NCBI GenBank assembly: GCA_041937185.1
Contig: CP166621.1
Location: 2,324,571-2,388,570 of the forward strand
DNA: 64,000 nucleotides
Direction: 5' to 3'
From: Leptolyngbya sp. BL-A-14
Lineage (GTDB): Bacteria > Cyanobacteriota > Cyanobacteriia > Leptolyngbyales > Leptolyngbyaceae
A program made the translations under genes and the position numbers. Below the pieces are notes generated by a model. The model worked only from the letters and a program-made list of their open reading frames with translations. It had not been told where the DNA came from and did no database searches. Below are positions 5,898 through 44,215 of this stretch, one piece after another. Each line of letters opens with the position of its first letter. Positions within the stretch are counted from its first letter, which is position 1.

Positions 5898-6069
5898 TAT
5901 TAAAGTAAAGTACCCCATACAGATGGGGCGTGAACAATGTGGCAAGAGAGGGATGAGTGGTAAGGAGGGCGGTAAGGGAGAAGCGATGAAGGGAAAGGGC
6001 TTTCTGTCGGTCGTGACGACCTTTAGCTATCAGCTATTAACCACCAGCTATCAGCATAATTTACCGCTG

Positions 6070-31743: not shown

Positions 31744-31781
31744 GGCTTACAGCGACGCTCGGTTGAGTCAGCCGCAGTTTT

Positions 31782-31846
31782 GGGAGTAGGGGGATGGGGG
31801 ATAGGAGATGGGAGTAAGGGGAGGGGGTGGGGGATGGCAGGTGCAG
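31782..31846. repeat. STRR-like G-rich heptamer tract (GGGGATR family)
   Basis: gggagtagggggatgggggataggagatgggagtaaggggagggggtgggggatgg. Confidence 0.7.
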
Positions 31847-31877: not shown

Positions 31878-32480
31878 TCAAGAGGGGGGCTCTGTTCCTC
31901 CGTTGACAAGACCTGCCAGTAACAAACGCCAAACCTGGGCAAAGTCAGCATCGATCGTTGGACTGCTCCATTCGTTAGCATGAGCGGGATGATGGAAGCG
32001 AGTTGTGGCGTAAAAAACGGCCTTCGCTGCGGTATGGGCATCTGTAACCGCAAACTCCTGGCTGGCAATACCGCTTGCAATGATTTGAGTGAGTTGTTGT
32101 ACCAGTTCGTCGATGTGAGCTTGCACGACGTCTCGCGCTTCTTCCACGATCGCTGCATAGGTCGCGAACAATTCGGGATCATCCAGTACTTTTTGCCGTT
32201 TGAGTTTGATGAGGTGTTCCAACCAACGGTGTAACCGCTCCACAGCGGAACCTTGATCGGCCGCAATAATAGCCAACGGCGCGGCAACTCGGTGCAACCA
32301 CCGTTCTGCCACGGCATCGCGCAACGCTGCTTTACTAGCAAAGTGTCGGTAAAGCGTGCCGTGGCTCACCTCTAGAAAGCGAGCCACATCCACAACCGTT
32401 GTCTTTGCGGGTCCATACCGTCGCAAAACTTCTTCTGCGGCATCAAGAATCCGCTCTGGTGTCAACGCTGAATCACTCAA
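31878..32480 (-). CDS. TetR/AcrR family transcriptional regulator
   Basis: N-terminal HTH …TTVVDVARFLEVSHGTLYRHFASK…. Confidence 0.85.
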   Translation of the reverse strand: MSDSALTPERILDAAEEVLRRYGPAKTTVVDVARFLEVSHGTLYRHFASKAALRDAVAERWLHRVAAPLAIIAADQGSAVERLHRWLEHLIKLKRQKVLDDPELFATYAAIVEEARDVVQAHIDELVQQLTQIIASGIASQEFAVTDAHTAAKAVFYATTRFHHPAHANEWSSPTIDADFAQVWRLLLAGLVNGGTEPPS

Positions 32481-32543: not shown

Positions 32544-33548
32544 TTATACTGACGTACGCTCGCTATTGAGCATGGCCATTTGCTCTGCATTGTAGCGATC
32601 GCCTGCCACGGCATCGGGTGGAATCGCCGCTTCAATTTGGGCAAGGTCGGCCTGACTTAATTGTAGATTCAACGCGCCCAACGCTTCCTGCAACTGATCG
32701 CGTCGCCGTGAGCCGATGAGTGGAATGATGTCGGTGCCTTGTGCAAGTACCCAGGCGATCGCAACCTGAGCGACAGTAGCCTCTTTTGCTTGAGCAATCT
32801 GGCGCAGTGCTTCTACCAGTAACAGGTTGCGATCGAGATTCTCGCCCGCAAAACGCGGTAGGTGTCCGCGAAAATCCTGCGTCGTTGTTGACCGATCTTT
32901 TGACCAGTGGCCGCTCAACAGTCCTCGTGATAGGACGCCATACGCAGTGATTGCGATGCCTAGCTCACGCACAGCAGGCAGAATCTCAGCTTCAATGCCC
33001 CGACTCAGCAGCGAATATTCAATTTGCAGCCAGGAAATGGGATGCACGGCATGAGCCCGTCGAATGACCTCTACTCCCACTTCTGATAGCCCAATATGCC
33101 GGATGTACCCAGCCTGCACCATTTCGCCGATCGTCCCGATCGTGTCTTCGATTGGCACAGTAGGGTCAAGGCGGGCTGGTTGATACAGGTCGATATAGTC
33201 GGTGCCCAGGCGCTTAAGAGTGTAGGCGAGAAAGGTCTTTACGGCTGCTGGACGACCATCAAAGCCAATGAAATGACCTTCCGGCGATCGCAAGGCTCCA
33301 AATTTGACGGCAATGAAGACATCTTCCCGTCGTCGTCCTGCCAGCGCTTCGTGCAAGAGCAACTCGTTGTGCCCCATGCCATAGAAATCACCCGTATCAA
33401 GCAAGTTAATACCGGCATCAAGCGCTGCATGCACCGTCGCAATACTTTCGCTTCGATCGGCAGGACCATAAACGTCCGACATGCCCATACAGCCCAGCCC
33501 AATGGCTGAGACGGTTGCTTCAGTCGTACCCAGTTTGCTTAATAGCAT
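32544..33548 (-). CDS. aldo/keto reductase
   Basis: 334 aa; AKR signature …LGCMGMS…[11 protein letters not shown]…. Confidence 0.9.
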
Positions 33549-33879
33549 TGTGCGTCCTCCACGCTGGTGATGACATTACCCTAACGAATTGAATGACAAA
33601 AATCAATATCTGTTACTCAAATTTTGTTAGAGCGTTTGTGCTTTTGCTATATGCCTTGGAGGGCGCGTTCGTTCTGCGCGTTCAAGCCGAAGGACGTCTA
33701 ACCGAACGGTGGTTGAATGCGGCAGAAAACGGCTTTGTCTGGAGCGGTAGATCGTACGACAAGGTGAAGTTTGCCTGCCTTGTTCCCTGTAACATGCAGG
33801 CACGCGTCAAGCGCTTGTCTCAATGAACCTCCTCCCAACGCGATCGTCGGGAAGAACACGAACGGCAATCACAGCCAGC

Positions 33880-34449
33880 ATGAAACACCCTTCTCGACCC
33901 ATCCAACTCCTGGCGATTTCAGGCAGCCTGCGGGAACGATCGTCGAATACCGCCCTCTTGCAAGCGGCGATCGCACTGGCACCCAAGCATGTAGAAATTC
34001 GGCTCTATAAGGGACTGGGCGATTTACCGCACTTCAATCCTGACCTTGAACCGTACGAACCGGCGGCTGTCACAGATTTACGCCAGCAACTGCATATCTG
34101 TGACGGGTTAATCATTTCAAGCCCAGAGTATGCCCATAGCATCCCTGGTGTCTTAAAAAACGCACTGGATTGGCTGGTAAGTGGAGAAGAGTTTGTAGGT
34201 AAACCCGTTGCCCTCTTGAATGCATCACCGCGAGCAACCTATGCTCAAGCAACCCTTAGAGAGGTCGTCACGGTGATGTCGGGGCACCTGGTTGCTGAAG
34301 CATCGATCGATATCCCATTACTGGGTAGAAATCTCGATGCAGCAGGCATTGTAGCTGATCCAGACTTCTCTACTGCCATTAACGGCGCGATCGTGGCCTT
34401 TGTAGCCGCGATTGAAAAGAGGGTAGTAGAGCAATCCCCAAGCCCATGA
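33880..34449 (+). CDS. NAD(P)H-dependent FMN reductase
   Basis: …LLAISGSLRERSSNTALL…LIISSPEYAHSIPGVLKNALDWL…; ATG at 33880; the listed ORF starts earlier. Confidence 0.8.
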   Translation: MKHPSRPIQLLAISGSLRERSSNTALLQAAIALAPKHVEIRLYKGLGDLPHFNPDLEPYEPAAVTDLRQQLHICDGLIISSPEYAHSIPGVLKNALDWLVSGEEFVGKPVALLNASPRATYAQATLREVVTVMSGHLVAEASIDIPLLGRNLDAAGIVADPDFSTAINGAIVAFVAAIEKRVVEQSPSP

Positions 34450-35323
34450 AGGGTCGTGCCGTAAAGGGAAGGATTGTGAGAGGGTGAGAGCGTGCGAAAG
34501 CCCCTACTCACATGTTCTCATCCGCCTACTATTCATCTCTAGTCGTTCCTCAATAAGACTACCCTCTGAAGGCTGTCTAAAAGTTTAGAGAATGTCTGAA
34601 AAGGAGTCGTTGATAGCACTCACCCGCCCTGCACTGAAATGCAGGCTGACAGCAGGAAGTCCGTTGAAACGGACTCTAGTCATCGCAAGGGTGCCAAATC
34701 CTCTCAAGAGAACTGCAAGAGCGTTTCAACGGGTTTCGTACCATGAGCCCGGATTTTAATCACCAGCGGTGAACGACGGAGCGAGTAGCCTTTCAAGACG
34801 TTTGTCAGTCAATTAGATTTAAACCTCTTCCACGTTGAAATCACTTTTGAGCTTAAGGTTTGCTTGAGACCACCATTGTACTGAAGAAAAAATTGTTGAA
34901 ATCTATCTAAGAACAGAGTGCAAAAGTTTATTGCTAAGGAATATAGTGAGCAAGATTGCTACCCTATCGGATGAGGCGATTTTTTTATACATGTACAACA
35001 ATCAATGCTGTCGTCTCTTTCTCACTGGTTCATCTTGCCCGCCACATCTGGTATTGCTGTTTAGGCAGCAGAAATAGCTTCTCTAGCTTTAAGTACGTTC
35101 AAAATTAATTTAAATGCGTTCACAACCTAAACTTCCTTAAGTTCTTCGGCAACATTGAAGTTAAGCAAGTTAAGCATATTAGGAAAGTTAGCCTGCTGGT
35201 ATAGCGCCAGGTTTAAATCGATTTATATCAGTCAATGAGCGATCGCCACGGTTACGCTTTCTAACCCTGTGGTGATTGATTTCGATCAACATCTGACAAG
35301 CTTTCTCATATTCGGAGGTTGGA

Positions 35324-36586
35324 GTGCAACGATACTCGTTCCTTATTGCGTTACTTCTGTTATCTCTGGGTGCTAGCGCTTGTAGTAAAAATGACAGTGC
35401 CGCTAAAGCCAGCGGGCCACCCCCTTCTCAAGTAAAGGTGCAAACTTTGCAGAATGGCACTCTGCAAGACAGCATTGAATACGTCGGTACGTTGCAAGCA
35501 GAAAAAACGGTTCAGCTTGTACCCCAAATTCAGGGACGCATTGGAGAAATTTTGGTTCAGCCAGGGGCGCGAGTCGAAAAGGGTGATCCGATTTTTCTGC
35601 TCAATCCAGACGATACGCTTTCGCAGGTTAGAAGTGCCCAGTCCACGATCGGCGTTAATCTTGCGGCTCGTAATACCGCAGCCAAGCAACTCCAGGCATC
35701 AAAGTCGGCCCTAGCCTCAGCGCAAGCACAGTATGAATTGGCACGGGTGAATAACCTCCGCTATCAGCAGCTCTATCGAGAGGGCGCGGTCGGTGCAGCA
35801 ACTGCCGATCAATATGCCACGGCTGAAAAAACAGCTCTCGCAACGGTCAGACAAAATCAAGACGAGGTTAGCGCTCAGCAGGCAGCGGTTGACCAGGCAG
35901 ACGCCACTGTGCGCAAATCGCAATCTGATTTGGATACGGCACAGGTCAGCTTGAACTACAAACGGGTTGTTGCACCCATTTCAGGCTCGGTTGGTAATAT
36001 CACGCTCAAACCAGGAGATTACGTGACAGCGGGGCAAACCCTGACGACGATCAACCAGAATGACTATTTTGATCTGCAAATTCCCGTGCCCTTAAGTAAG
36101 GCTGGACTGGTGAAAACAGGGCTGACGGTGGAACTGCTCGACCCGAATAGTGGAAACCAGGTCGGCACTGGCAAAATCTATTTTGTTTCCTCGCAGGCAA
36201 GCGCAACGGATCAATCCATTTTGACGCGGGCGCGGTTTGTCAACGAAGGCAGTAAGCTACGGGATGCGCAGTACGTAAGAGCGCGAGTGATCTGGTCAAC
36301 CAAGCCAGGCGTCATGGTGCCGACGACCGCTGTTACCCCGATCGGGGGACAGAACTTTGTGTTTGTGGCTGAAGATAAAACGGATGACCAGGGCAAAACC
36401 CAAACCGTAGCGCATCAATTGCCGGTGACGTTGGGCAATATTCAAGGGCAATCTTATCAGGTGTTGAAAGGTCTGAAACCGGGCGATCGCGTCATTGTGT
36501 CTGGAGTGGCTCGCTTGCGTGATGGTGCGCCTGTTAAACCTGAGGCGGCTGATGTCAGCGCATCGCCAGCGAATGCCGCTAGTTAG
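35324..36586 (+). CDS. efflux RND transporter periplasmic adaptor subunit (HlyD/MFP family)
   Basis: Lipoprotein-like N-terminus, coiled-coil hairpin region, beta-barrel C-terminus; precedes the RND permease. Confidence 0.85.
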   Translation: MQRYSFLIALLLLSLGASACSKNDSAAKASGPPPSQVKVQTLQNGTLQDSIEYVGTLQAEKTVQLVPQIQGRIGEILVQPGARVEKGDPIFLLNPDDTLSQVRSAQSTIGVNLAARNTAAKQLQASKSALASAQAQYELARVNNLRYQQLYREGAVGAATADQYATAEKTALATVRQNQDEVSAQQAAVDQADATVRKSQSDLDTAQVSLNYKRVVAPISGSVGNITLKPGDYVTAGQTLTTINQNDYFDLQIPVPLSKAGLVKTGLTVELLDPNSGNQVGTGKIYFVSSQASATDQSILTRARFVNEGSKLRDAQYVRARVIWSTKPGVMVPTTAVTPIGGQNFVFVAEDKTDDQGKTQTVAHQLPVTLGNIQGQSYQVLKGLKPGDRVIVSGVARLRDGAPVKPEAADVSASPANAAS

Positions 36587-36629: not shown

Positions 36630-39600
36630 GTGATTTTATCCATTGCGGATACGTTTATTAAGCGCCCGGTACTGACAACGGTCTGTACGATCGTGATTTT
36701 GTTGCTGGGGGCCGTGAGTCTACCGCTTTTGCCGATTGAATATGTGCCTCAAATTGCACCGATTCAGGTTCAGGTGACGGCTAGCTATGTAGGAGCCGAT
36801 CCAGAAACGATCGAAACCACCGTTACAACGCCGATTGAGCGGAAGCTGAACGGCACCCGTGATATGCAGTATTTCACCTCAACCAGTGTGGCAGGCTCTA
36901 GCAATATTGCTGCCTTCTTTGGGGTGAATACAAAGCCGAATGAAGACCAGGTGAACGTTCAAAATAACCTGCAACAGGCCACGCCGCTTCTGCCTTCATC
37001 GGTGCAACAGCAGGGCATTGTGGTGAAAACGGCGTCTCCCAGTATTCTGGTCGTCTATGGCTTCTTTTCACCGAACGATGAGTACGACGCTACCTTCATC
37101 AGTAACTATGTTGACCTGTACGTAACGGATGAAGTGGCACGGATTCCAGGGGTGGGTCAAACCAACGTGTTTGGACAGTTGCAATACGCTATGCGGTTTT
37201 GGCTTGACCCCAATGCCCTCGCTAGCCGCAAGATTGCGGTGAATGATGTCGTCAGCGCTATCCAAGCCCAGAATGTGGTTGTGGGAGGTGGATCGATCGG
37301 TTCCGAACCCGCACCCAAAGGGCAACAATACCAAATTCCACTCAAGCTGCAAGGGCAATTTAAGAGTGTTGCGGATGCAGAAAATATTGTCATCAAAGTG
37401 GGAAGTGATGGCACCCAGACCAAGCTCAAGGATGTGGGACGGGTTGAATTGGGGGCACAGTCCTACAGTAGTTCTGCCAAAATTAACGGCAAACCGGGTG
37501 TCGCATTAGGGGTTTACCAGTTACCAGGCAGTAATGCGCTGGATGTGGCAAAGCAAGTTGCGACGAAGATGGAAGAGCTGAAGCAAAGCTTTCCACCGGG
37601 TATTGAAACCGAATTGGTCTATGACACGGTGAGCTTTATTGAAGAGTCAAACAAGGAAGTCATCATCACCCTGGTAGAGGCGATCGTGCTGGTGATTCTG
37701 GTGATTTTCGTCTTCTTGCAAGACTGGCGGGCGACAATTATTCCAACAATCGCCATTCCCGTCTCCTTAATTGGGGCGATGATCTTTGCCAAGCTGTTTG
37801 GCTTTTCCATCAACAGTTTGACCATGTTTGGACTGGTACTGGCTACGGGACTGGTGGTGGACGATGCCATTCTAGTGGTGGAGGCGATCGCAGCCAAAAT
37901 TCAAAATGAGGGAATGACGGCCCGACAGGCCAGCTATGAGGCTATGAATGAACTCACAGGAGCCATTCTTTCGACCTCACTGGTGTTGATGGCGGTGTTT
38001 GTGCCAGTGGCATTTTTCCCTGGTGCGACAGGCTTACTGTATCGGCAGTTTGCGCTAATTATTGCGTTTTCGATCGCCGTCTCCACGTTCAATGCCTTGA
38101 GCTTTAGTCCCAGTATTGCCGCCATTTTGCTGCGTCCACCCCAGGAGGCCAGCGGACCGTTAGGCTGGTTTTTTGACAAATTTAACCGGGGCTTTAGCTG
38201 GTCACGCGATCGCTATCTCAGCGCGACAGAGTTTCTCATCAAACTGCGCTACCTGGTGATTGGCATTTTTGTGGTGGGATTGGTCGCCACTGTCTTTATG
38301 TTCAAGGTGGTACCTGCTGGGTTTGTCCCTGCCGAAGATCAGGGATCTGTGCTGGGGTTTGTGCAGGGTCCGAACATTGCATCACTGCAGTACACCCGCA
38401 ACATTTTGGATCAGGTGCATCAATCGGTAGTCAGTGTGCCAGAGATTGAATCTACGGCAGAAATCAGCGGTGCCGGCTTTAACGGTAATGCCGCCAATCA
38501 GGGGATCTTTTTTGCCCACTTCAAGCCCTGGAGCGATCGCCCCAAAGCCAATCAAACCGTTGCAGCCATCCTGAAAAAGTTGAATGGAGAACTGGCTGGC
38601 AAAATTACGGGTGCAACAGCGGTTGGCTCCAGTCCGCCTGCCATTCCTGGGTTTAGCCCGTTGGGTGGTTTTAACATGCAGGTGGAGGACACCACAAACG
38701 GTCGCCTGTCGTTTCAAGAATTTGCTGGCAATGCTCAGGATATTTTGAAGGAAGCCAATCAAAGCGGCATCTTTCAGCCACCAGGCGCTTTTACCCAATT
38801 TACAGCGAATACGCCGCAGTATGAGATTGACATCAACCGTGATCAGTTGAATGCCCTCAATGTAAATTTCGATGATGCGTTGACGGCACTGAGCACCAGC
38901 ATCGGTTCAACCTACGTGAACCAGTTTGTGTTGGGACCGCGCTTTTACCAGGTGTATGTGCAGTTAGACGCGCAATACCGCAGCAAACCGGAGGATCTGA
39001 AGCAAATTTATGTGCGATCGAGCAGTACCAATGGCACCAGTAATATGGTGTCGCTGGATCAGTTAGTGACGATTAAGCCATTTACAGGACCCGCCGTCAT
39101 TTCGCACTTCAATGGTTATCGTTCCATCTTGCTGCAAGGGACTCAGACCTCGGAGCACAGTAGTGGTGAAGCGATCGATGTCATCAGCAACGCATTCAAA
39201 AAGATTGCGTTGCCGGGGATCAAGTTTGAGTGGGCAGATTTAACCCGACAGGAAGTCGCCGCCGGAAGTTTGGGTCCGTTAATCTTCCTGTTTGGCATCA
39301 TCATGGTGTTTCTGGTATTAGCCGCTCAGTATGAGAGCTACATCGACCCCATGATTATTTTGCTGACGGTGCCATTAGCGATTTTGGGTGCCCTTAGTGC
39401 GATCGCCCTGCGACGGTTGATTGATCCCACCCTGGCAAATGACGTTTACGCTAATATTGCGCTGGTCATGCTGATTGGTCTTGCCAGTAAAAACGCCATC
39501 CTGATTGTAGAATTTGCCAATCAGGCGCGTGAGCAGGGGAAGTCGATCGTTCAGGCAGCGCTAACGGCGGCAGAAGAACGGTTGCGCCCCATTCTCATGA

Positions 39601-39911
39601 CGGCCTTTGCCGCACTGGTAGGATTCTTTCCGCTTGTTGTAGCAACGGGCGCAGGGGCAAACTCACGACACTCGCTAGGTACAGCCGTCTTTGGAGGACT
39701 GCTGGTAGCAACGTTTCTCAGCCTCTTGTTTGTGCCCGTGCTCTATGTCGTGATCAAAACCCTGGAAGCTCAATTCCTCGACAAAGCGCGACCTAACCGA
39801 CCCTCTGGTGGAACCCCTACCCATACGGAACCTGATTCTTCCCACGATGGTGCGAGTGAAACACCTCAACCAGAAGCCACTCGGAGAATTCAGGGTGAGC
39901 CGTTGGGTTAG
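36630..39911 (+). CDS. efflux RND transporter permease (AcrB/AcrD/AcrF family)
   Basis: 1093 aa, 12-TM RND architecture with two large periplasmic loops. Confidence 0.9.
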   Translation: MILSIADTFIKRPVLTTVCTIVILLLGAVSLPLLPIEYVPQIAPIQVQVTASYVGADPETIETTVTTPIERKLNGTRDMQYFTSTSVAGSSNIAAFFGVNTKPNEDQVNVQNNLQQATPLLPSSVQQQGIVVKTASPSILVVYGFFSPNDEYDATFISNYVDLYVTDEVARIPGVGQTNVFGQLQYAMRFWLDPNALASRKIAVNDVVSAIQAQNVVVGGGSIGSEPAPKGQQYQIPLKLQGQFKSVADAENIVIKVGSDGTQTKLKDVGRVELGAQSYSSSAKINGKPGVALGVYQLPGSNALDVAKQVATKMEELKQSFPPGIETELVYDTVSFIEESNKEVIITLVEAIVLVILVIFVFLQDWRATIIPTIAIPVSLIGAMIFAKLFGFSINSLTMFGLVLATGLVVDDAILVVEAIAAKIQNEGMTARQASYEAMNELTGAILSTSLVLMAVFVPVAFFPGATGLLYRQFALIIAFSIAVSTFNALSFSPSIAAILLRPPQEASGPLGWFFDKFNRGFSWSRDRYLSATEFLIKLRYLVIGIFVVGLVATVFMFKVVPAGFVPAEDQGSVLGFVQGPNIASLQYTRNILDQVHQSVVSVPEIESTAEISGAGFNGNAANQGIFFAHFKPWSDRPKANQTVAAILKKLNGELAGKITGATAVGSSPPAIPGFSPLGGFNMQVEDTTNGRLSFQEFAGNAQDILKEANQSGIFQPPGAFTQFTANTPQYEIDINRDQLNALNVNFDDALTALSTSIGSTYVNQFVLGPRFYQVYVQLDAQYRSKPEDLKQIYVRSSSTNGTSNMVSLDQLVTIKPFTGPAVISHFNGYRSILLQGTQTSEHSSGEAIDVISNAFKKIALPGIKFEWADLTRQEVAAGSLGPLIFLFGIIMVFLVLAAQYESYIDPMIILLTVPLAILGALSAIALRRLIDPTLANDVYANIALVMLIGLASKNAILIVEFANQAREQGKSIVQAALTAAEERLRPILMTAFAALVGFFPLVVATGAGANSRHSLGTAVFGGLLVATFLSLLFVPVLYVVIKTLEAQFLDKARPNRPSGGTPTHTEPDSSHDGASETPQPEATRRIQGEPLG

Positions 39912-41163: not shown

Positions 41164-41490
41164 CTAAGCAGCTTCTAAAGGGGCCATGGTTAAGCCTTCC
41201 ATGCCAAGCTGCATATGGTAAAGCTCTGCTTGTTCTTGAGGCCCCACCCAGACGATCGCCTGCCCCTCGTAGTGAATTTGGTTGGTGAGTTCGGAGGCGC
41301 GATCGAGGGTCATACCTGGAATATGCTCTAGCAAGCTCTCTGTAACGTGCTGAAAAGTGTTGAAATCATCGTTAAGCACAATGATCTTGAAGTTGGGATA
41401 ATGCTGGCGGGTCACTTGGCTAGACCGCGAAGGAGCTACCGTTGGTGCAGCAGTTGAGGCAGAGGAAACCAGCGGAAGTGTCGTTGTCAT
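41164..41490 (-). CDS. clpS: ATP-dependent Clp protease adaptor ClpS
   Basis: …YPNFKIIVLNDDFNTFQHVTESL… is a classic ClpS core. Confidence 0.85.
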   Translation of the reverse strand: MTTTLPLVSSASTAAPTVAPSRSSQVTRQHYPNFKIIVLNDDFNTFQHVTESLLEHIPGMTLDRASELTNQIHYEGQAIVWVGPQEQAELYHMQLGMEGLTMAPLEAA

Positions 41491-41599
41491 AGAAATTCAC
41501 CAAAAAAGCACTAGTCGATAGACGTTGGTTAGTCACTTATCGTAACTCACTCACTTTCAGCAGTGTAGAAGATTAAGCAGCCATCAAAAGCAAAAAGCC

Positions 41600-41637
41600 G
41601 ACGAGAAGGGAACAGCCTTCTTAGTCTCCTTTTTTAT
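41600..41637 (+). terminator. intrinsic-terminator-like hairpin plus T-run (also T-rich on the opposite strand); no annotated gene upstream on the + strand
   Basis: gacgagaagg gaacag ccttcttagtc followed by tcc tttttatt. Confidence 0.45.
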
Positions 41638-42421
41638 TAAGGCAACTGAAACATTCGATCGAGGCTTCTTCTTGCATAGAACGCCTGTCCATAATCTAAA
41701 AAATGGTTCTTTATCTATTGATACGGCGGCATACGTCTAAACAAGTTTTAATATATTTAGTTGACCTACCAAAGTAGTGTATTGATATGGAGTCATAAGC
41801 TTTTACTTTGCTGTTCACTCTGCACTGAACCAATGTAAAAATGGGTTAACTAAAAGTGGTTTAACTGGTCTTTTAACGTCACGTATCGTCCTTGAGACGA
41901 TACGTGACGAAATTACTAGACAAAACCACTTGTAGAGTCAATAAAATCTTACTTTAGGAAGATTTGGTGGTTCGATAGGACTCTACCGGAGGTATAGTCG
42001 CACCGCTCACAATCCTGAGACAGTAAGAGTTGGGTTGACTAAACATGTTTGAGACGACAGTGCTTGAAAAGCAAAGTGTAGCAGGGCTACTCTAATGCTG
42101 ACCGATGGTCAAAACGGCTTTATCATCGTCAGCGATCTGAACTTTATTCCTGTCTGCTCAACTCGATTGATAACGCTATAGCAATAAGAAGGCTGTCTTT
42201 ATATCAGTCCTTTTGCGTTTTTAAGCTGCAAGTGAGTTGGCTTTTTTAGAGTAGCGAATTACAGCAATACGCTGCTCATTGCTTGTAAGTTTGGTGCCAT
42301 GAATTCATTACACCAATTACAGCAGGCATCACGCTGAGAATCATTGCAGATGCATAAGCATTCTGGTGAATCTTGAGCAATGTTTTGTTTGAGCATTTAA
42401 CATTTTGTGTGAGGTTTTAAC

Positions 42422-44215
42422 GTGAAATACTTAGTTAAAAACATGGGGCGTTCGTTGATCTTCGTAAGTCCTGTCCTGTTAGCCATTGAGCTGATAGGCA
42501 TCTTACCGGCGATCGCGGTTCCGTCATCATCTGCGATGACAGAATCTCGTTCAACAGAGTCTCCGTCAAATGCCTTGCCCCAGCGTCAATTCAACTCCTT
42601 AACCAGTCAAGCTGCCGTTCCGTCATTCAGTCAAGCAACCACTCCGCAACGCCTCGCCCAGACTTCTGCACCTAAAAGCCTAGCCACTTCAGACTTGGCG
42701 GATGGCGATCCCATGGATCAGGTAACATCCATCTCCCAACTAACGGACGTAAAACCAACAGATTGGGCTTTTCAGGCGCTACAGTCGATGGTGGAACGAT
42801 ATGGCTGCCTCGTGGGTTATCCCGATCGTACCTATCGCGGTAACCGCGCCCTGAGCCGCTATGAGTTTGCAGCGGGGTTAAGCGCCTGTATGGATCGAGT
42901 CAATGAACTCATCAATGCGGGGACGGCGGATCTCGTCAAACGAGAAGACGTGCTGACATTACAACGATTGCAAGAAGAATTTGCGACTGAGTTGGCAACG
43001 GTGCGAGGACGGGTCGGTGAACTAGAGGCCCGATCGGCAACATTGGAGAAGCAACAGTTCTCGACCACTATCAAGCTTGTGGGCCAACTGATTACAAGCG
43101 TGAGTGATACCTTTGGCAATCGTGTGGGTGGTCGCTCAGATCAATCGCAAACCTATTTTGCTGATCGCGCCCGACTGAATCTAGAAGGGAGCTTCACAGG
43201 CAGAGATTTTCTGCGTGTGCGGTTGGAGTTTGGCAACTTTTTGCGATCGGATTTCTCCAGCGCGATTGCATCCGTTACTGGCACAAACAATACGCGGTTG
43301 AACTTTGATACCGATACAGGCAATCGACTTGCGATCCCGCATTTGCTCTATCGCTTTCCCGTGGGAGACAGTGTTTCGATTACGGTAGGCCCAACCGGTG
43401 TTGGCTTTACGGATATTACGAGTACCATCACCCCCCCTTCGATCGCAGATGACGGTATGGGCATTCCTTCTGTATTTGGGGAATATAGCCCCTTCTATCG
43501 TCAAGGTGGCGGTGGTGGTGCCATTAACTGGAATATTACGAACGATTTGGTGCTGACAGTCGGCTACCTGGCTATAGATGCCAATGTCCCTAACAGTAAA
43601 AACGGGCTTTTTAATGGTGGCTACAGCGCGATGGCGCAACTTGCTTACACGGGCAATTGGGGGGGGATCGGTGTCAGCTATGCTCACCTCTACAATCGGG
43701 CAGGGAGGATTGGTCTTAGCGGCGGTGCCGGTAGCTTTCTAGCCGAGCAACCCTTTGGTGACGGCATTGCTACCAGCGGCGACTCGTTTGGGCTGTCAGG
43801 TTTTTATAAAGCGGCGCGCCATTTCAACATTCATGGATGGGGTGGCTATATCAAGGCGTCCGCTGAAAATTCTGCCTTTAGCAATGTTTCCAACGGTCGC
43901 GGCGGCACCAATACGTTTTTTGTAAGTGACAATGCGAATGCCGATATTTTCTATGGTGCGCTTGGCCTCACCTTTCCAGATGTAGGCGGAACAGGCAACC
44001 TACCAGGAATTTTGGTCGGTATTCCACCCAAAGTGACCAGTGGCAGTGTTCGCAGCGATCGCAGCACACCAGTTCACGTGGAAGCGTTCTATCGCTGGCA
44101 AATTACCGATAACATCGGTATCACACCTGGTTTTTGGGTCATCTTCAATCCTGAGAATGATAGTCGGAATGATACTCAGTTTGTAGGGGTTCTACGCACC
44201 TATTTCAGCTTTTGA
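42422..44215 (+). CDS. SLH-domain / OprB-type outer-membrane porin (cyanobacterial Som-like)
   Basis: Signal peptide, N-terminal SLH motif (…GYPDRTYRGNRALSRYEFAAGL…), coiled-coil linker, Gly/aromatic-rich beta-barrel ending in F. Confidence 0.85.
   Translation: MKYLVKNMGRSLIFVSPVLLAIELIGILPAIAVPSSSAMTESRSTESPSNALPQRQFNSLTSQAAVPSFSQATTPQRLAQTSAPKSLATSDLADGDPMDQVTSISQLTDVKPTDWAFQALQSMVERYGCLVGYPDRTYRGNRALSRYEFAAGLSACMDRVNELINAGTADLVKREDVLTLQRLQEEFATELATVRGRVGELEARSATLEKQQFSTTIKLVGQLITSVSDTFGNRVGGRSDQSQTYFADRARLNLEGSFTGRDFLRVRLEFGNFLRSDFSSAIASVTGTNNTRLNFDTDTGNRLAIPHLLYRFPVGDSVSITVGPTGVGFTDITSTITPPSIADDGMGIPSVFGEYSPFYRQGGGGGAINWNITNDLVLTVGYLAIDANVPNSKNGLFNGGYSAMAQLAYTGNWGGIGVSYAHLYNRAGRIGLSGGAGSFLAEQPFGDGIATSGDSFGLSGFYKAARHFNIHGWGGYIKASAENSAFSNVSNGRGGTNTFFVSDNANADIFYGALGLTFPDVGGTGNLPGILVGIPPKVTSGSVRSDRSTPVHVEAFYRWQITDNIGITPGFWVIFNPENDSRNDTQFVGVLRTYFSF

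Follow-up and report, generated by a model that had tools for sequence, protein, structure and literature searches.

An inverted doublet of a two-hairpin repeat, a candidate REPIN- or MITE-like element, downstream of an FMN-reductase gene in Leptolyngbya sp. BL-A-14

The spacer and its counterparts in related genomes

The candidate region is part of a spacer in Leptolyngbya sp. BL-A-14 that is bordered on one side by the gene for an NADPH-dependent FMN reductase and on the other by an RND efflux operon, which encodes a membrane-fusion protein (MFP) and an AcrB-type pump. Genes for an aldo/keto reductase (AKR) and a TetR regulator are located upstream of this spacer (Table 1). Throughout, the window refers to the whole 64,000-nt stretch of DNA that was analyzed. 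A sequence-only reading of the window had described the spacer as gene-free and had placed a structured-RNA candidate in it. All of the features listed in that reading are present in the sequence, with coordinates that had to be shifted by 1 to 4 nt, or by 10 nt in the case of the end of a small open reading frame (ORF). In agreement with it, 34450-35323 contains no complete ORF of at least 60 aa; an 88-aa antisense ORF (34245-34511) overlaps this region only at its left edge.

Syntenic loci from Lyngbya sp. HA4199-MV5 (L001) and Stenomitos rutilans (L009) were obtained from a genome scan with the reductase protein, and two further relatives, L016 (77% amino acid identity) and L015 (84%), were added by protein search and exact look-ups. 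The L015 contig stops 13 nt past the reductase stop codon. Exact look-ups of the AKR and MFP proteins returned only short Logan contigs ending before the element, an exact look-up of the window's FMN reductase returned no record, and the loci of P0007 (L023 and L024), P0124 (L018), and P0202 (L022) were not syntenic. The gene order AKR, FMN reductase, MFP, AcrB is kept in L016, L001, and L009, and the right-hand part of the spacer, 34808-35323, was matched in all three (nhmmer, 1e-73, 4e-23, and 2e-22, respectively), with homology beginning near 34808. In contrast, neither nhmmer nor MAFFT found a match to 34450-34807 in any of these three syntenic loci. This segment, which is bounded by the FMN-reductase stop codon on the left and by the conserved RND upstream region on the right, is therefore a lineage-specific insert of approximately 358 nt, and it is not present at the orthologous position in the relatives.

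The spacer measures 874 nt in the window versus 685 nt in L016, approximately 520 nt in L001, and approximately 600 nt in L009. In these relatives, the reductase stop codon is followed by 75 to 175 nt of unrelated sequence, and the segment directly after the stop is different in every one of them; a short GC hairpin is found at this place in L001 (GCGGCGCTGCCGC) and in L009 (CGGTGTGACCCACCG). The GC profile of the window gave a gene-like value of approximately 0.50 in the insert versus approximately 0.37 in the remaining spacer. A BLAST search of 34450-34840 among plasmids and phages returned no match.

The approximately 500 nt directly upstream of the efflux operon (34808-35323), conserved in the syntenic L016, L001, and L009, were noted separately. 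They contain a near-invariant 22-mer, ATTGCTACCCTATCGGATGAGG, at 34955-34976, with one C/T difference in L016, as well as a conserved TATAGT and the block ATGTACAACAATC. This stretch is not conserved as an ORF, there being an in-frame stop in L016, and most of it is missing from L018, in which the operon has a different upstream neighbor. A conserved-leader fold was considered and rejected: RNAalifold proposes a helix between ATGTACAACAATC and the ribosome-binding and start region, but this helix is not recovered when the sequence is folded singly, and the single-sequence fold has a z score of only -1.0. The stretch may be a promoter/operator, at which the TetR protein might act, or a leader, and we offer this as a lead rather than as a result. 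Sequences that regulate the efflux operon are likely to be found in this block, with a TetR regulator encoded in the adjoining cluster.

Table 1. Positions of genes and sequence features at the locus, in window coordinates
Feature	Position	Strand	Remarks
TetR regulator gene	31878-32480	-	
Aldo/keto reductase (AKR) gene	32544-33548	-	
NADPH-dependent FMN reductase gene	33823-34449	+	Stop codon 34447-34449
Lineage-specific insert, ~358 nt	34450-34807	.	nhmmer and MAFFT versus L016, L001, L009
Module 1, hairpin-rich segment with long G.U-containing stem	34449-34610	+	Homologous to L015 nt 1-145
55-aa ORF, judged spurious	34592-34759	+	Reads through units L and R
Unit L, intact two-hairpin repeat unit, ~60 nt	34617-34680	+	Matches L022 333-394 and the L014 units
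Hairpin A of unit L	34628-34645		CCTGCA/TGCAGG
Linker of unit L, between hairpins A and B			GCTGACAGCAGG
Hairpin B of unit L	34658-34675		AGTCCGTT/AACGGACT
Spacer between units L and R, 32 nt	34681-34712	.	Read from the sequence
Unit R, decayed inverted copy of unit L	34713-34776	-	Covariance-model matches, local alignment
Weak terminator-like site within unit R	34730-34760	+	CGGGTTTCGTACCATGAGCCCG then GATTTTAATC; consensus scan
MFP gene of the RND efflux operon	35324-36586		
AcrB-type pump gene of the RND efflux operon	36630-39911		

The inverted duplication and the recurrence of its unit

The first ~160 nt of the insert make up module 1, which matched the 84% identical relative L015 (nhmmer, E = 6e-9). 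It is the sole match of the L015 segment within the window, and no second copy of module 1 was found within these 64 kb. In L015, this copy is found past the TetR gene at its 3' end, that is, on the opposite side of the TetR/AKR/FMN-reductase cluster. Both copies fold into a long stem containing G.U pairs; the + strand is markedly more stable in the window copy (-51.3 versus -36.2 kcal/mol on the - strand), with a smaller strand difference in the L015 copy (-52.8 versus -46.7 kcal/mol). Separately, a G-rich, low-complexity run (GGGAGTAGGGGGATGGGGGATAGGAGATGGGAG...) was seen in the window directly downstream of the TetR gene (31780-31840), and the equivalent position in L015 carries module-1-like sequence in its place. 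A perfect 10-bp complement was also noted between the FMN-reductase coding sequence at 34418-34427 and the insert at 34558-34567.

Beyond module 1, the insert contains two inverted units, L and R. Unit L is intact and forms both of the local hairpins that had been reported from the sequence, here termed A and B, while unit R has lost both. Local alignment of unit L with the reverse complement of unit R gave 30 identical positions out of 39 (arms 34637-34677 and 34718-34756) and a score of 26, versus a mean of 13.1 for shuffled sequences, and none of 2,000 shuffles scored as high. Unit R was also matched by covariance models, with E values of 0.069, 0.024, and 0.0017. The extended inverted duplication is thus real and significant. 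The bare 11-bp inverted repeat at its core is not unusual, with six such loci (at most 100 nt) in the window and approximately two hits in Markov simulations.

The duplication accounts for the two long helices on which the structured-RNA proposal had drawn. The perfect long-range pairing is real, though TCCGTTGAAACGGA is situated at 34660-34673 rather than at 34664-34678: an 11-nt complement joins CCGTTGAAACG (34661-34671) with CGTTTCAACGG (34722-34732) across 50 nt and extends into 35-nt arms (34637-34671 and 34722-34756) with 74% complementarity. The possible closing helix, AGTCGTT at 34605-34611 with AACGAC at 34773-34778, is likewise present. Both helices exist because unit R is the reverse complement of unit L, unit R supplying the CGTTTCAACGG arm of the one and the AACGAC arm of the other, and they are not evidence for an RNA selected to fold in this way. 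Furthermore, hairpin B and the long-range helix are mutually exclusive, since the same bases are used in both. The spacer between the units holds a mini-palindrome, TCTCAAGAGA (34701-34710), which in an alignment by eye resembles a diverged hairpin B with two compensated pairs.

The two-hairpin unit was found on other contigs. A contig from ENA sample ERZ26165376 (L022), fetched for another reason, shares 46 of 58 nt with unit L (nhmmer, 7e-5) and carries its unit between a sigma-70-like gene and an unrelated gene. A pattern scan of metagenomes found a single contig (L014), in which covariance model R1 identified two different units (1374-1434 and 1464-1527), accompanied by mirror copies and adjoining an NTPase-like gene typical of filamentous cyanobacteria. 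In the four independent units, the stems of hairpin A differ yet stay paired (CCTGCA/TGCAGG, CCCGCAAT/ATTGCGGG, CCAGGGAAT/ATTCCCTGG, and GCTCGGAAAT/ATTTCCGAGC), the linker GCT.ACAG is retained, and hairpin B, AAGTC[C/G]GTT.AAAC[G/C]GACT, hardly varies, with a single C-G pair exchanged for G-C. In a MAFFT alignment, which was not fitted to structure, 95% of cells were paired and four pairs were changed on both sides. The covariation score was above those of all 500 shuffles and all slid controls, and a model-fitted alignment agreed. The unit therefore recurs elsewhere with compensated stems.

The family is drawn from three independent contigs, and the L014 units gain just ~6 to 9 bits beyond hairpin B, which is by itself generic: low-GC phage contigs in which neither stem A nor the linker is present use it as a terminator stem. 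Matches from scans of viral contigs shared stem B only, and two more specific patterns matched nothing in them. The repeat unit was not found in L016, L001, or L009 with covariance model R2, and blastn, nhmmer, and the covariance model detected no second copy of the doublet or unit in the 64-kb window of this 7.19-Mb genome.

Several neighboring observations were made in the course of these searches. The L022 unit is contained in a segment of its own of approximately 270 nt (306-578), in which 33-nt inverted arms, 76% complementary, form a long imperfect hairpin; the L022 spacer has no Rfam match. The end of the L014 contig (1370-1583) is a long perfect palindrome with several small hairpin units in mirror order, which could be a real repeat cluster or partly an assembly fold-back artifact. 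L020, a 60-kb low-GC viral contig, carries the AGTCCGTT..AACGGACT stem at least three times (3718, 6349, and 10253), apparently as its standard terminator and unrelated to the cyanobacterial unit. In the window, an intergenic stretch on the - strand (6003-6057) gave a weak R2 match (E = 0.09) and contains a direct repeat, GCTGATAGCT, as well as a short hairpin, GGTCGT/ACGACC; it does not resemble the unit and is unlikely to belong to the family.

Readings of the element

We favor, with a probability of roughly 0.6, the reading that the candidate consists of two inverted copies of a small, dispersed, palindromic two-hairpin repeat, that is, non-autonomous repeat DNA of a REPIN- or MITE-like kind. 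The ~358-nt insert would have been acquired by this Leptolyngbya lineage just past the FMN-reductase stop codon, and its units would have spread by transposition or recombination catalyzed in trans. If transcribed, the doublet would give the reductase mRNA a hairpin-rich 3' untranslated region (UTR), and this might slow exonucleases or lower read-through. Its role would be at most that of such a 3'-UTR hairpin, and it would have no dedicated part in regulation of the efflux operon. Should the unit prove abundant in Leptolyngbyaceae, a double-hairpin family would be added to the known cyanobacterial palindromic repeats, potentially useful as a marker of genome plasticity.

It is unlikely that the doublet is instead a local accident, namely, a small inverted duplication in fast-evolving, lineage-specific 3'-flanking DNA, belonging to no mobile family and having no function, with its similarity to L022, L014, and L015 due to chance or to an ancient remnant. 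The single doublet in the 64 kb, the variability of the sequence right after the reductase stop in every relative, the generic nature of hairpin B, and an 11-bp inverted repeat within chance would all be in keeping with this. However, the L022 match spans both hairpins and the linker and was obtained at E = 7e-5 in just 0.2 Mb of sequence fetched for other reasons, the L015 match is stronger still (E = 6e-9), and stems compensated across copies are unexpected by chance.

We give the same small chance to the unit representing a repeat or RNA family not yet described from filamentous cyanobacteria. It would then either be acted on by an unrecognized transposase or nuclease, with stem B and the linker as the recognized sequence, or be a modular RNA element that is active wherever it lands. 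Written as RNA, the unit combines a stem A that varies but stays compensated with the linker GCU.ACAG and a stem B, AAGUC[C/G]GUU.AAAC[G/C]GACU, that is nearly invariant. An identity of GTTGAAAC as an integron attC site or a CRISPR repeat was tried and rejected, as the core motifs did not fit and there was no array or integrase context.

That the element is a functional structured RNA, whether a 3'-UTR element or 3'-UTR-derived sRNA of the reductase transcript (+ strand) or an independent sRNA (- strand), strikes us as quite unlikely. A structured element is indeed present, and its hairpin pairings are kept with compensatory changes on other cyanobacterial contigs, so that this part of the structured-RNA proposal stands; conserved hairpins with covariation among copies fit a functional RNA equally well. 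The gene-like GC content of the insert also agrees with this reading. On folding, 34560-34800 was moderately unusual against dinucleotide shuffles (z of -2.2 on the + strand and -2.75 on the - strand), and the - strand gave the best-defined fold (minimum free energy, -82.4; centroid, -82.0). The best 200-nt window here, 34601-34800 on the - strand, had a composition-adjusted z of -3.3 and ranked approximately 22nd of 6,382 in the 64 kb, below several coding stretches and 41741-42060. This advantage vanishes when the whole of 34450-34850 is folded (z of -0.98 on the - strand and -1.77 on the + strand). The + strand offers one weak terminator-like site, a stem at 34730-34751 followed by GATTTTAATC, which is about what chance or shuffling would yield. 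No U-run comes after hairpin A or hairpin B, and the - strand has no promoter-like site. The segment is missing from the orthologous loci, the inverted duplication accounts for the long helices, and neither local hairpin survives in copy R. Judged from sequence, a young, lineage-specific sRNA is conceivable, but nothing specific speaks for one.

Searches for known RNAs were unproductive for the region. At Rfam 15 gathering thresholds, the scan that the sequence-only reading had suggested returned just one tRNA, elsewhere in the window, and a search of 34400-35400 at E values up to 10 gave three weak, unrelated matches, none of them meaningful. The earlier failure to recognize RNase P, tmRNA, 6S, or SRP RNA was borne out by covariance models, which matched none of these in or near the region, and ARAGORN found no tRNA or tmRNA in it.

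Two other parts of the window were conspicuous for their folds. Windows within 34181-34580, over the 3' end of the FMN-reductase gene, were unusually stable (z of -4.2 on the - strand at 34201 and -3.8 on the + strand at 34381). An AT-rich, gene-free stretch of approximately 930 nt at 41490-42422 has the most stable local fold of the window, with z down to -5.8 on both strands and nested helices of 14 bp (perfect; 41877-41890/41896-41909), 13 bp (41850-41862/41923-41935), and 13 bp (41805-41817/42065-42077); no Rfam match was found within 41400-42500.

A riboswitch or leader controlling the RND efflux operon, as had been proposed from the sequence, is very improbable. The element does occupy a long gene-free region upstream of the operon and can fold, but L016, L001, and L009 lack the segment and yet keep the operon and the conserved 500 nt upstream of it. 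We reject this reading because the comparison with relatives contradicts such a role. In addition, the segment lies 5' of the conserved block, it matches no Rfam family even at E values up to 10, and the repeat also occurs beside unrelated genes. With the long-range pairing recognized as a by-product of the inverted repeat, a false riboswitch or sRNA lead is removed.

A gene for a small basic protein with a duplicated PLKRT motif is scarcely credible. The ATG-started ORF exists and encodes PLKRT twice with different codons, as had been stated, but it spans 34592-34759 and 55 aa rather than 34593-34769 and 58 aa. A word-indexed search gave no candidate homologue. HMMER, run in full against 1.84 billion representatives, returned three large repeat proteins only, which are not real homologues because their E values come from summed weak tandem-repeat matches. 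Its codon score of -0.07 per codon is at the level of spurious small ORFs (mean, -0.06) and below that of real genes (mean, 0.21; minimum, 0.12). The ATG has no preceding Shine-Dalgarno sequence, the relatives do not have the ORF, and a repeated pentapeptide is also found in 7 of the 293 small ORFs of the window. The first PLKRT is encoded by stem B and the second by the mini-palindrome in the spacer between units L and R; the six nucleotide differences between the two 15-mers are all synonymous, but four of the six, read by eye, amount to two compensated base pairs of a palindrome.

Comparison with known repeat systems

The likeness of the doublet to REP sequences and REPINs is one of architecture, and membership in either class is not established by it. 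REP dimers are described with 20 to 100 bp between their members and, for the most part, in positions downstream of genes (PMC3733652, Di Nocera et al. 2013), and REPINs are REP doublets that form hairpins (PMC3116915, Bertels & Rainey 2011). Similarly, the window unit is a short, imperfect palindrome in extragenic DNA that can form stem-loops, the inverted units L (+) and R (-) are separated by a 32-nt spacer and fold as a pair into one long hairpin, the doublet is located directly downstream of a coding region, and its presence among related genomes is patchy. It differs in that the unit is approximately 60 nt long with two hairpins, whereas classic REPs have 20 to 40 nt and one hairpin, and in that the window copy has no flanking GTAG or CGTC tag: at the tag positions, CTGAC follows hairpin A and CTAG follows hairpin B. 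L022 has CTAC and GACG at these positions, and L014 has neither tag. Tens to hundreds of extragenic copies are a hallmark of REPs and REPINs, compared with one doublet in 64 kb here. A tblastn search for an IS200-type (RAYT-like) transposase found no match in the window or the loci, a weak test given its approximate IS200 TnpA query.

The hairpins also recall intrinsic terminators and 3'-UTR stabilizers, as they follow a stop codon, at the same place where relatives L001 and L009 have a GC hairpin, and hairpin B is a stem that some phages use as a terminator. Unlike intrinsic terminators, hairpins A and B have no U-run behind them, the one weak site being that in unit R.

Bacterial MITEs, such as the cyanobacterial Nezha (cited in PMC3733652), resemble the window doublet in overall size (approximately 170 nt) and lack of coding capacity, in inverted arms that give a rod-like fold, in insertion beside genes, and in presence/absence differences between relatives. 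The comparison with Nezha is by description only, and the doublet differs from MITEs in that neither a target-site duplication nor sharply defined terminal inverted repeats were found for it and no parent insertion sequence is known. MITEs have terminal inverted repeats of 15 to 30 bp flanked by a target-site duplication; the inverted arms of the doublet are 35 nt long and 74% complementary, and no flanking direct repeat was found.

Among cyanobacterial repeats, the unit may be likened, again by description only, to the small dispersed repeats (SDRs), very small hairpin-forming repeats of filamentous cyanobacteria that are clustered and nested in intergenic DNA in a manner comparable to the array in L014. 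The SDR units of Nostoc and its relatives are reportedly 21 to 27 nt long.
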